From NCBI GenBank assembly GCA_000002435.2, contig AACB03000034.1: a stretch of DNA of 3,797 nt; one strand, 5' to 3'. Position numbers and translations under genes: made by a program. This document shows, one piece after another, positions 45 to 3,797 of this stretch. The notes below the pieces were generated by a model, which saw only the letters and a list, made by a program, of their open reading frames with translations, was not told where the DNA came from and made no database searches. The DNA is from Giardia intestinalis (Eukaryota). Each line of letters begins with the position of its first letter. Position 1 is the first letter of the stretch.

Positions 45-562
45 ATGCTCTGTGGGTGATTGCAAGAGCTGTGTGGTGGACAATATATGTGGGAGTGTGT
101 TGATGGATTCTACTTTAAAGCTGGCGATGCACCCAGCTGTGTTAGCGCAGAGGCGTGTACTAATGAGGAGGGCTTCTTCATCGACGCTACCGAGAAGAAG
201 TGCACCGCGTGTGCAGATGATAATTGCGCTGTGTGCGTGGCCAAGGAGCAACAGAAGTGCAGCCTGTGTAAAACGTCTGGGACCAAGAAGTACCTGAAGA
301 AGGATGGCGAGTCCACAACCGGCACGTGCGTTGACACAGCTGGTTGTCCGGCAACCCACTACGTTGATGAAGAAGCAAAGGAGTGCAATACATGTGTGTC
401 GGCTGGAACAACTGACTGCACCACTTGTGAGAAAGGCGCCAACGGAGTGGTTTGTAAGACGTGTACGACTGATACGAAGACCATCTTTGGTCTCAACAGA
501 AAGTCGTGCGTTGCTAGTTGCCCTGCTAACTCTACCCCAAGGCCACCGGACAGGATAGCCAA

Positions 563-1483
563 GTGTGCGAGTGCAACGAAGGACTCCAACCTAATACTGA
601 ATCGACTGAATGCCAACCAATCAGTAACTGTAACACAGAGCACTGTTTGGAGTGCACCAGTGAAGGTGCCGATAAGGAGGTCTGTACAAAGTGTCTGTCT
701 GAGTACTACCTCACCCCAACCAGTCAATGCGTATCTGACTGCACGACCCTCAAGGGCTACTACGGAAATGACACTGACAGAAAGTGCAAGAAGTGCAACG
801 ATGCGTGCGTAGAGTGCAAGGGTGAGGGCGCTGATAAGTGTACGGCTTGTCCTGCTGGGAGGATGCTTCAGTATACAGATGCTGATACTCCTGCCAATGG
901 GGGCACGTGCATGAACCAGTGCAGCGTGAGTTCTACAAACGATGGATGCGCAGAGTGTGGGGCTCAGATAGGAGGAACTGCATACTGCTCAAAGTGCAAG
1001 AACACTCAACAGGCACCACTGGATGGCAACTGTGCGGCCAATACGCGAACACGATTTTGCACTACGGTGAGTAATGGAGCATGCACTCAATGTGAAAATA
1101 ACTACTTCCTCAAAGATGGCGGTTGCTATCAGACAGATAGACAGCCTGGCAAGCAAGTGTGTACTACAGTGCAGGGAGGAAAATGTACAAAATGTGCCAG
1201 TGGTCTAACGGCTGATAATGGCGATTGTTCCAATAAAAGGTGCCATCTTAGCTGCGAGACATGCACGGCTGCTAACGACGCTAACGCCTGTGCTACATGC
1301 AGCACTGGATATTACAAACCGCAGAGTGCTGGGACAAAGTGTAATCCGTGCTCTGAGGGGCTCGCTGGGTGCAGGCAGTGCACGGTGTCATCCACCGGTG
1401 CGTTCATGTGCTTCGTGATGGGCGACGGCACTGGCGACAACACCGGCGGAAGCGTCAACAAGAGCGGCTCTACTGGGCCATAG
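563..1483 (+). CDS. Largest open frame segment of unit 1 (VSP cysteine-rich ectodomain fragment, 306 aa ORF; the GTG start is an ORF-caller artefact)
   Basis: Supplied ORF 563..1483. CxxC repeats throughout, GGCY at 1118-1129, ends NKSGSTGP* just before the TM segment. Confidence 0.45.
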
Positions 1484-1485
1484 CA

Positions 1486-1568
1486 GGGATTCCGTGGCTG
1501 TGGTCGTTGTCGTGGGGGGCCTCGTGGGCTTCCTCTGCTGGTGGTTCGTGTGCAGGGGGAAGGCGTGA
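1486..1568 (+). other. C-terminal TM helix + CRGKA cytoplasmic tail + TGA stop of unit 1 (out of frame with ectodomain)
   Basis: Translates as ...[24 protein letters not shown]. Bases 1504-1590 are identical to 3424-3510. Confidence 0.8.
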
Positions 1569-1575
1569 CTTGGGT

Positions 1576-1582
1576 AGTGAAT
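1576..1582 (+). promoter_or_regulatory. Giardia polyadenylation signal AGTGAAT (AGTRAAY), 8 nt after the stop
   Basis: agtgaat at 1576-1582 directly downstream of TGA 1566-1568. Same spacing as in unit 2. Confidence 0.7.
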
Positions 1583-1594
1583 GCTGTACAATGT

Positions 1595-1645
1595 GTGATA
1601 TGGTGATAGTGGGTGATAATGGTGATGATAGTGGAGTGTGATATG
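1595..1645 (+). promoter_or_regulatory. Inter-unit spacer made of GTGATA/GGTGAT repeats running into the ATG (candidate promoter/initiator region)
   Basis: GTGATA at 1595, 1603, 1613 and 1638, GTGATG at 1622; gtgtgatATGcacaaagg. The core ggtgatagtgggtg (1602-1615) recurs at 26-39. Confidence 0.4.
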
Positions 1646-1970
1646 CACAAAGGCTGAGGGGGAGTGTGCACTGCTTGTAAAGCAGATAACGGCCTGTTCA
1701 AGAACCCAGTTACACCTCAGAAGCCTGGTAGTGAGTGCATCCTCTGTCATGATGTCAATGGGGCAGATGGATATACAGGGGTGGCTAACTGCGCACAGTG
1801 TACCAAGTCAGACAGTAGTCCAGGACCTGCCACGTGTACAGAGTGCCAAGATGGATACTACAAGAACTCTCAGACATGTGTCAATGTAATGAAGCTTGTC
1901 TGACCTGCGATGGAAGTGGTCAGAATCATTGTACATCGTGCCCAGAGGGGAAGTACCTGAAGAGTAATCA

Positions 1971-3341
1971 ATGTGTACAAGATACTGGATGCGATGGAAC
2001 ACTTATGCTGACCCGGAGTCGGGAACATGCAAGGCATGTAGTACGATACACGCAGAGTGCACGGCATGCTCCTTCGACAAGGCCACGGGGAAGCCGAAGT
2101 GCACTAACTGCGGGACCAATAAGACCCCCAGGACGGCCCTCGACGGGACATCGACCTGCGTGGCGAAGACGCTTGAAGGATGCGAGGGCGCTGACGAGGC
2201 CTTATTTATGAAGGAGGACAAAACGTGTGCTCTTTGTAGTGATGTGACAGATTCAACTCTTGGTAACGAAGGAAAGGCCAACTGCAAGACATGTACGAAA
2301 ACAGGAAGTGACAATCCAACCTGCTCAGCCTGTCTCGATGGATACTTCTTTGATAGTGGTACTAGTACATGTACAGACAAGTGTGGTGATAACTGTGCCA
2401 CATGCTCTGTTGCTGGTGATCCAAATAAGTGTGAAACCTGCAAGACTGGATACTTCTTAGTAACTACTACAGATCAACAGGGGAAGAAGTGCGTCCCATG
2501 CGATAGCGTAGACGATAAGGGTCGCGAAGGCTGCAGTGTCTGCTCTAACAACGGTGCTTTCAAGTGCACTGACTGTAAGCCTAACTATCGCAAGGAGGGC
2601 AGTACTGGCTCTGTCACATGCACCAAGATCTGTGAAGATGATACTGCCTGTGGAGGAACTTCTGGTGCCTGCGATGCAATAGTGATTGATGATAAGGGTG
2701 TAGAGCATCATTATTGCTCATACTGTGGAGAAGCTAATACGTATCCTATAGATGGGAAGTGTAATAGTGCTAAAGCAAATAATCAATGTGATCAAGGTGT
2801 ATGTACACAATGCACTAACAACTACTTCTTGTATATGGGAGGTTGTTACAAGGTTGATACAGTACCTGGACAACATATGTGCAAGACAGCAGCCAACGGT
2901 GTCTGTACTGCTGTTAATGCCAACAATAGGTACTTCATAGTCCCTGGGGCAACCAATCAGAATCAGTCTGTATTGGCATGTAGCAACTCCCTTGGCACAC
3001 TAGTAGGCACTGGTGATACCTCTAAGGCATATGTGGGGGTAGATGGCTGTTCGGCATGTACGGCCCCAGCAGCTCCATCTGAGACTGGTATGACTGCTGC
3101 TGTGTGTACAGCGTGTACCAACAACAACAAGCCCAACCTGGCTGGGAGCGGGTGCTTCGCATGTACCGTTGACGGATGCTCGCACTGTGGAGCAGGCGTA
3201 AGTGCGAGGCCTGTACCAGTAAAGACCAGAGGCCGAACACAGACGGAACGAAGTGCATCGCCTGCAATATCGACGGGTGCGTCAGGTGCAGCGAGGAGAA
3301 CAAGTGCGGCCAGTGTGGGACGACTACAGGCTGGAGGGTGA
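1971..3341 (+). CDS. Largest open frame segment of unit 2 (VSP cysteine-rich ectodomain fragment, 456 aa; its ATG is internal to the unit)
   Basis: Supplied ORF 1971..3341. CxxC-rich with a GGCY motif. The sequence before about 2000 and after about 3197 in this frame is non-VSP-like. Confidence 0.45.
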
Positions 3342-3399
3342 GGCGTGCGTGTCCACCAAGCCCAGCGGGGGCAACAGAAGCGGCCTCAGTACTGGTGCC

Positions 3400-3489
3400 A
3401 TAGCAGGGATCTCCGTGGCTGTCATCGCTGTCGTGGGGGGCCTCGTGGGCTTCCTCTGCTGGTGGTTCGTGTGCAGGGGGAAGGCGTGA
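3400..3489 (+). other. C-terminal TM helix + CRGKA tail + TGA stop of unit 2
   Basis: [30 protein letters not shown], with tgc 3472 ... tga 3487-3489. Confidence 0.85.
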
Positions 3490-3496
3490 CTTGGGT

Positions 3497-3503
3497 AGTG
3501 AAT
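3497..3503 (+). promoter_or_regulatory. Giardia polyadenylation signal AGTGAAT, 8 nt after the stop
   Basis: agtgaat at 3497-3503, in the same context as 1576-1582. Confidence 0.7.
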
Positions 3504-3516
3504 GCTGTACATATGT

Positions 3517-3555
3517 GTGATAGAGGGTGATAGATATGATAGTGGAGTTGATATG
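3517..3555 (+). promoter_or_regulatory. Inter-unit spacer of GTGATA/GATA repeats running into the ATG
   Basis: GTGATA at 3517 and 3527, then gatagatatgatagtgg, then agttgatATGcacaaagg. Confidence 0.4.
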
Positions 3556-3797
3556 CACAAAGGCCATAGTGGAGTGTGCACTGCTTGTAAGGCAGATAAC
3601 GGCCTGTTCAAGAACCCGGCTGCAACACCAGAGAAGGGTTAGCGAGTGCATCCTCTGTCATGATGTCAATGGGGCAGATGGATATACAGGGGTGGCTAAC
3701 TGCGCCACATGTACGGCACCAAGTGGTAGTCCAGGAGCGGCCACGTGTGATACCTGCAGAGATGGATACTATAAGAACGCTCAGACATGTGAGAAGT
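3553..3797 (+). pseudogene. VSP-family unit 3, 5' partial at window end; N-terminus paralogous to unit 2, one +1 frameshift
   Basis: ATG 3553 reads MHKGHSGVCTACKADNGLFKNPAATPEKG then hits TAG at 3640-3642. VSP reading resumes in frame 2 at 3644 (ECILCHDVNGADGYTGVANCATCTAPSGSPGAATCDTCRDGYYKNAQTCEK). About 80% aa identity to unit 2 residues 1658-1880. Confidence 0.7.

Follow-up and report, generated by a model that had tools for sequence, protein, structure and literature searches.

Over half of the vsp genes of Giardia WB are organized in linear arrays, whose spacers average ~60 bp and reach up to 241 bp (Adam et al., 2010, PMC2996952). Such arrays are often met on very short contigs whose end falls within the array, and their downstream members have no initiator and often no ATG; array members were proposed to be either cassettes for recombination that are not expressed or genes that have been discarded (Adam et al., 2010, PMC2996952). 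The DNA analysed here, a stretch of 3,797 nucleotides from Giardia intestinalis (GenBank contig AACB03000034.1) referred to below as the window, is a linear head-to-tail array of 5′-truncated VSP pseudogene copies. Its origin is WB-like, sub-assemblage AI, since the top protein matches are gene models of G. lamblia ATCC 50803 (WB). The VSP reading frame of this array is interrupted again and again by single-base frame breaks, and comparison with Sanger-era proteins and short-read assemblies makes it quite likely that this load is mostly an assembly artefact, i.e., long-read consensus error.

In its architecture the window is identical to the WB arrays, as it shares with them and with the psiVSPs the head-to-tail units, the spacers of ~60 bp and the conserved 3′ end encoding CRGKA (PMC2996952, PMC7000408). 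The difference lies in the state of the units, which in Sanger-era or short-read sequence are mostly single open frames of 500–660 codons, whereas in the window the frame is broken every ~100 codons. Xu et al. (2020), who separated VSPs from psiVSPs by the start codon and the signal peptide, reported that homopolymer errors of PacBio reads gave frame-shifts in Giardia WB and that these were fixed only partly with 75-bp reads; solely sites supported by at least 10 mapped 75-bp reads were corrected, and leftover reads went to small unplaced scaffolds (PMC7000408). Raw Oxford Nanopore reads of Giardia were in turn found to be deletion-biased (PMC7048089). The indels left in a long-read consensus (PMC7000408, PMC7048089) resemble those of the window in being single-base and mostly deletions, perhaps also in being enriched in short homopolymers, and in truncating otherwise intact open reading frames (ORFs), and they persist where short reads lack unique placement; they differ in that about half of the window events fall outside runs of at least three identical bases.

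Another close counterpart is provided by frame-split pVSPs, e.g., GL50803_0050472, which like the window units have no internal stops, use all three frames and have the transmembrane (TM) segment split between frames, and which sit in arrays or unplaced scaffolds (Rodriguez-Walker et al., 2022). Evolutionary indels were invoked for these genes in the preprint, whereas the splits of the window appear to be mostly technical according to a Sanger-era protein and to short-read controls.

A more distant comparison is offered by the VSG pseudogene arrays of Trypanosoma brucei, which belong to an unrelated protein family and organism. These arrays are large and silent, contain many defective copies and are thought to serve as recombination donors; real frameshifts and stops are well documented in VSG pseudogenes, which are used by segmental gene conversion. 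Expression of Giardia VSPs is switched epigenetically, and the donor role of their arrays is hypothetical.

Frame Breaks in a Truncated VSP Array

The window holds three units, all on the plus strand: unit 1 (1–1568), a VSP pseudogene copy with its 5′ end cut by the window edge; unit 2 (1641–3489), a complete array unit, i.e., a 5′-truncated VSP pseudogene that begins with I-CTKAEGG; and unit 3 (3551–3797), the 5′ part of the following array unit, cut by the window end and identical to P0006 at 63 of 80 residues. They are separated by spacers of 72 nt (1569–1640) and 61 nt (3490–3550). At least two adjacent same-strand units with short spacers, the downstream members of which have no initiator, constitute a VSP linear array as defined by Adam et al. 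(2010), and this is what the window contains. The assignment to the VSP family, made at first from the letters of the DNA only, has held: the repaired conceptual proteins of units 1 and 2 match Pfam PF03302 (Giardia VSP) with 229.9 and 134.6 bits (threshold 31.4), and protein database searches matched only Giardia VSPs, with 233–355 VSP homologues. The restored path has 12.6% Cys and 52 CXXC motifs, as expected of the cysteine-rich ectodomain, and two C-terminal TM segments with CRGKA tails and a stop (1515–1568 and 3436–3489).

Frame breaks were called by frameshift-aware protein-to-DNA alignment with the closest homologues together with tblastn frame paths; a majority-vote frame path drawn from 948 tblastn high-scoring segment pairs proved too coarse near the tails and was replaced by the frameshift-aware alignment. 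There are 13 breaks in the window, twelve −1 and one +1, and every event that could be resolved against close homologues is exactly 1 nt. Not one stop occurs in the 1,212 codons of the restored path, against one per 17 codons in the off-path frames (P ~3e-31); the pattern of breaks is thus a real feature of the sequence, and chance is very far from explaining it. The sequence-only reading had described nearly all frame changes as 1-nt deletions, which agrees with the count of 12 in 13, and all of the sites listed in it (534–538, 1478, 1489, 1880, 1996–2000, 3198, 3317–3319 and 3640) were recovered by the alignment and tblastn. It had, however, missed five −1 events, three of them (27, 41, and 91) upstream of position 530, where its range began, and two (1658 and 3566) within that range.

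Unit 1, with the frame path 3 > 2 > 1 > 3 > 2 > 1 > 3, aligns with XP_001707661.1 (P0084, WB) at 493 of 517 identical residues (95%); the alignment requires six −1 events and, at 1469, the loss of one codon. The breaks are at 27–29 (K-[D/G]-GSGC, where G?T has lost its middle base), 41–42 (between GSGC and xTCSVGDC in the P0084 alignment), 88–92 (~91, NIC-[G/E]-ECVDG, with GGG in place of GGGG or GAGG) and 534–538 (a C4 run at ANSTP/KATGQ, where both P0084 and P0121 continue as NSTPKATGQ), and twice in the tail, at 1475–1479 (~1478, STG/AIAG, GGG-CC for GGGGCC or GGTGCC, broken also in comparison with the unit 2 tail) and 1488–1491 (~1489, AGI/SVAV, within the TM segment). The three breaks at ~27, 41, and 91 fall within 65 nt at the window start, a density that fits a consensus problem at the end of a contig. 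In the tail, one codon (Leu of NRSGLSTG, 1466–1471) is absent relative to unit 2, P0084, and P0121; it is the sole in-frame indel against a close homologue.

Unit 2 follows the path 3 > 2 > 1 > 3 > 2 > 1 and breaks at 1655–1662 (~1658, in the G5 run 1658–1662, CTKAEG/GVCTAC), 1880–1884 (QTCV?/CNEAC, where GTCAA leaves 5 nt for two codons), 1996–2000 (GCDG/NTYADP, GGAAC for GGAAAC), 3197–3199 (~3198, CGAG-D-KCEAC) and 3317–3319 (CGQCG/DDYRLEG, GGG for GGGG). At 3198, a site outside homopolymers, GAT has become GT; the base that is missing is the A of this codon (Asp in XP_001705784.1) and not a G of ggcggt, as had been thought. The proposal that GGGG instead of GGG would restore the frame at 3317–3319 was borne out; XP_001705784.1 reads through this site with identical flanks. 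In unit 3 (2 > 1 > 2) a −1 break at 3566–3571 (ICTKA/.SGVCTAC) leaves 11 nt where short-read homologues have 12, at the same homologous position as 1658, and the only insertion of the window is found at 3639–3641 (~3640, an extra T, GGTTAGC for GGTAGC). The extra T had been recognized from the start; the lost CCT codon reported along with it depends on the alignment and is offset by an extra unit 3 codon ~20 nt upstream, and the net offset of unit 3 vs. unit 2 near 3640 is +1 only.

Codon 5 of unit 2 had been read as a stop of the substitution type, a sign of genuine pseudogenisation that no indel error could produce. The TGA exists (1655–1657) but it lies out of the VSP frame: ATG CAC AAA GGC TGA is an off-frame reading of the I-CTKAEGG block conserved in ~40 homologues, and its interpretation as a nonsense mutation was rejected. 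Frame 3 of the window reads I-CTKAEG at 1641–1661 and frame 2 goes on GVCTACKADNGLFKNP. What the site holds is a further −1 break, located in a run of G.

All the same, the units are true pseudogenes (psiVSPs), being truncated array cassettes, and this holds whatever the indels; the reason, 5′ truncation, is one that the sequence-only reading had not given. A unit starts ~110 residues into a full-length VSP, at I-CTKAEGG, within a block that reads ...FLFMGGCYK....PGSEI-CTKAEGG-x-CTxCKxDNGLFKN in ~40 homologues. The start codon and N-terminal signal peptide of a functional VSP are missing from the window units, and in restored unit 2 no Met precedes that of MKEDK at 2208 (codon 185–194). Without ATG, signal peptide, and initiator the units are silent in any reading frame.

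Evidence on the Origin of the Breaks

Evidence from an independent sequence is given by XP_001705784.1 (P0001), a protein that derives from the Sanger assembly of WB and is identical to unit 2 at 423 of 425 residues (99%) over 2208–3486. The alignment passes through frame 3 at 2208–3197 (328/330), frame 2 at 3200–3319 (40/40) and frame 1 at 3319–3486 (56/56), and P0001 reads straight through both 3198 (GAG-D-KCEAC) and 3317 (CGQCG-DDYRLEG), where the flanks are 100% identical. Its N-terminus is informative as well, because VSP bodies hold almost no Met. When each of the 32 possible repair states of the five unit 2 sites was built and the open frame was started at its first ATG, a model of 427 aa beginning MKEDK and matching P0001 exactly was obtained only if 1880, 1996, 3198, and 3317 were all repaired; with 1996 broken the model had 506 aa and started MCTRYWMRW..., and with 1880 broken it had 538 aa and started MCQCNEAC.... 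Of the five breaks of unit 2, four or more appear to be absent from the Sanger copy, as judged directly for 3198 and 3317 and from the start codon for 1880 and 1996; the comparison with P0001 bears on these four of the 13 sites. In a homologue search with the region 1641–2320, which covers 1658, 1880, and 1996, the best match was just 65% identical. Against P0001, unit 2 shows 4–5 single-base indels and two amino-acid changes, which is not like a natural mutation spectrum, even if P0001 is a 99.5% paralogue.

The indels themselves carry further signatures. The direction bias (12 of 13 events −1) departs from a 50:50 expectation (P = 0.0017); set against a natural spectrum with 70% of the −1 class it gives P = 0.064, and on its own it could reflect a natural deletion bias. 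Deletions touch a remaining run of at least three bases in 6 of 12 cases vs. a background of 21% (P = 0.026), with 3198 clearly outside a homopolymer. The single event that is not 1 nt is an in-frame 3-nt deletion. None of the 24 substitutions that separate unit 1 from P0084 removes a Cys (67 of 67 kept, P = 0.037), and a dN/dS comparison on the corrected alignment, which the sequence-only reading had proposed, gave 0.41 for units 2 and 3 (79 codons) and 0.38 for the tails of units 1 and 2 (38 codons), both of them small samples. As dN/dS is ~0.4, the restored frame was under constraint for most of the divergence, which counts against genuine decay. The mixed lesions in the ancestral frame and the relaxed constraint that characterize a decaying pseudogene are not seen here. 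As regards position, 5 of the 13 events lie no more than 250 nt from an end of the window (P = 0.02), while the two unit-specific bodies (540–1470 and 2000–3190), which were defined post hoc, are free of them. This clustering at the window ends and outside the bodies is no more than suggestive and, given the post hoc regions, was not relied on; it would be expected if consensus building and polishing fail near the ends of contigs and where many paralogues have the same sequence.

Giardia contigs with VSP arrays in ENA metagenome assemblies built with MEGAHIT or SPAdes (L001–L008) were put through the same frameshift scan as controls. Their ~5,400 VSP codons contain one frameshift and one nonsense codon, and the ~1,800 codons of neighbouring, unselected units contain no frameshifts, an outcome with a chance of 4e-9 at the rate of the window. 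The frameshift density is thus 0.06/kb in short-read arrays vs. 3.58/kb in the window, a 58-fold difference (binomial P ~3e-9). At the block that corresponds to 1658 and 3566, the contigs L001–L004 read GCC AGT AAT GGA GTG TGT, 12 nt in frame, vs. 11 nt in units 2 and 3. The two window units agree with each other in having 11 instead of 12 nt between ICTKA and CTAC (1658–1662 and 3566–3571). The controls hold genuine lesions too. A reproducible −1 frameshift in a full-length VSP (L006:4342 = L007:4256) lies outside homopolymers in sequence identical at 2,069 of 2,069 nt across two independent assemblies, and a TGA nonsense codon at L004:1694 interrupts an array unit; real array lesions therefore include nonsense substitution, and this class is absent from the window.

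Competing Explanations

The two alternatives left side by side by the sequence-only reading, long-read consensus error and real decay, are not equally well served by this evidence, which favours consensus error. Under genuine decay the units would be older, real paralogous copies in a silent array that acquired true single-base deletions, e.g., by replication slippage. Such a history is unlikely, but a number of points speak for it and weigh against consensus error. In units that are untranslatable anyway, frameshifts would be neutral. Real decay could have taken place in unit 1, which, with no more than 95% identity to the nearest Sanger-era protein, represents a paralogue of its own; a visual comparison with P0084 and P0121 suggests that certain of its substitutions are unique to the window. 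Frame-split pVSPs in the WB reference were read as evolutionary indels (preprint 10.1101/2022.03.07.483299), and genuine VSP lesions do occur, as the frameshift of L006 and L007, identical in two assemblies, and the nonsense codon of L004 demonstrate. The coincident sites 1658 and 3566 could be one shared ancestral lesion (their coincidence by chance is ~0.2), and about half of the deletions, e.g., 3198, are outside homopolymers. Finally, the inference from start codons assumes that the annotators of 2007 took the first ATG of the open frame, and XP_001705784.1 could stem from a paralogue of 99.5% identity and not from this locus. What tells against decay is the kind and the number of the lesions: no nonsense codon along the whole restored path, no frameshifting indels of 2 nt, 4 nt or more, a deletion bias of 12:1, an indel-to-substitution ratio of ~1:1 vs. 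a Sanger-era protein that is 99.5% identical, and a density of frameshifts far above that of short-read arrays. The Cys skeleton is moreover intact, the restored frame constrained, and the breaks are absent from the unit-specific bodies and cluster toward both ends of the window. These features could be joined with genuine breaks if silent cassettes gained almost only single-base deletions and the frame stayed stop-free and constrained, e.g., refreshed by gene conversion with expressed genes; this is somewhat less probable again, and if it were true, the frame breaks would be a specific way to keep donor cassettes silent but reusable.

One may also ask if the window is a collapsed or chimeric consensus, in which reads of several near-identical units or alleles (Giardia is tetraploid) were merged, so that indels and substitutions cluster where the copies differ. 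The breaks are indeed concentrated in segments common to the units and other paralogues, at least 4 nt changes clustered at 2986–2996 replace a near-invariant NPLG motif, unit 2 is a patchwork of tracts nearest different paralogues, and higher allelic variation was noted around VSPs (PMC7000408). However, mosaicism is natural in VSP genes (PMC2996952) and is present in Sanger-era proteins too, a merger is expected to leave substitutions and mixed indels and not a nearly pure −1 series, and the unit bodies match XP_001705784.1 almost perfectly; a collapse of this kind is thus improbable, clearly more so than decay. Functional recoding, by programmed −1 ribosomal frameshifting or editing at sites that permit the full protein, would be in line with a restored frame that is fully open and VSP-like, but it was rejected and is hardly credible: units that lack a start codon, a signal peptide and an initiator offer nothing for translation, no motif is common to the thirteen sites within 3.6 kb, the nearest relatives need just one frame for the same protein, and no signal of an RNA family or structure was detected. 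Consensus error accounts for the window best. On this explanation, the 13 breaks would be superimposed on silent cassettes and would mostly be errors of a deletion-prone long-read assembly, arising where consensus building and short-read polishing perform worst, i.e., near contig ends and in segments that recur in many units of the array. A genuine origin is still conceivable for one or two breaks, e.g., for the positionally shared pair 1658/3566.

Consequences for the VSP Repertoire

Both the array organization and the class of long-read artefact are already known, and the window adds little to biology: truncated silent VSP arrays are textbook Giardia genomics and long-read frameshift artefacts a known nuisance. 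Its value lies in a caution for annotation, namely that short-read polishing can fail in repeat-rich arrays of antigen genes, and that accurate reads are needed before pseudogenes split over three frames are put down to evolutionary decay. The current WB reference lists 133 VSPs vs. 208 psiVSPs, and technical splits affect estimates of the usable repertoire and likewise analyses of recombination or selection in VSP arrays. If most breaks of the window are consensus errors, some of the frame-split psiVSPs counted in published long-read references of Giardia would be technical, and the reservoir of intact VSP sequence larger than annotated.

Unit Boundaries and Mosaic Composition

The joints between units follow one plan: the 3′ end of a unit, conserved as CTTGGGTAGTGAATGCTGTACA and carrying the polyadenylation-type motif AGTGAAT, passes into a degenerate GGTGATAGTG repeat, after which the next unit begins. 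The unit 1 tail has its TM segment and CRGKA at 1491–1565 and its stop at 1566–1568, and is followed by spacer 1, with the conserved 3′ end, AGTGAAT at 1576–1582 and the GGTGATAGTG repeat at ~1590–1634; in the unit 2 tail CRGKA lies at 3472–3486 and the stop at 3487–3489, and spacer 2 has AGTGAAT at 3497–3503 and then a GTGATAG-like repeat. The same junction (CRGKA and stop, AGTGAAT, a spacer resembling GGTGATAG, and then (V/M)-ICT.A, where the coding sequence resumes) is shared by the window and by Giardia contigs of unrelated short-read metagenome assemblies, where it was located at L001:2784–2860, L003:1875–1960 and L004:108–190 and 2117–2200. Because the junction is conserved across assemblies, the unit boundary looks like a propagated, fixed breakpoint and not like a random truncation. 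The WB gene models P0003, P0009, and P0011 of 2007 start with MLYSDSDS..., i.e., at ATGCTGTAC of the 3′ end of the preceding unit, and come from the same kind of array. With its odd length and cut units at both of its ends, the window may be a whole small contig.

Outside the VSP frame, the minus-strand ORFs of 120–209 aa (e.g., 3022–3651, 2003–2443, and 1312–1701) gave no Pfam match, and such long antisense ORFs probably result merely from the base composition on the coding strand of the VSPs. No Rfam family was matched on either strand of the window, and a scan of JGI metagenomes with P0001 turned up no VSP relative.

Unit 2 is a mosaic. A block of 73 aa (CEDDTACGG...FLYMGGCY, ~2634–2852), which sits in an AT-rich patch (GC 0.36–0.42), is identical to XP_001703902.1 (P0003), to which its flanks are 35–65% identical; a GC-rich patch (0.61) at 2026–2250 is nearest P0004, and further segments are nearest different paralogues. 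This patchwork is consistent with gene-conversion tracts. At 2981–3001 the window has ACSNSLG where XP_001705784.1 has ACENPLG, a change that comprises at least 4 nt differences within 7 nt beside a C-run, and NP[LV] is kept at this position in 70 of 71 homologues; the cluster could reflect noisy consensus or a real micro-conversion.

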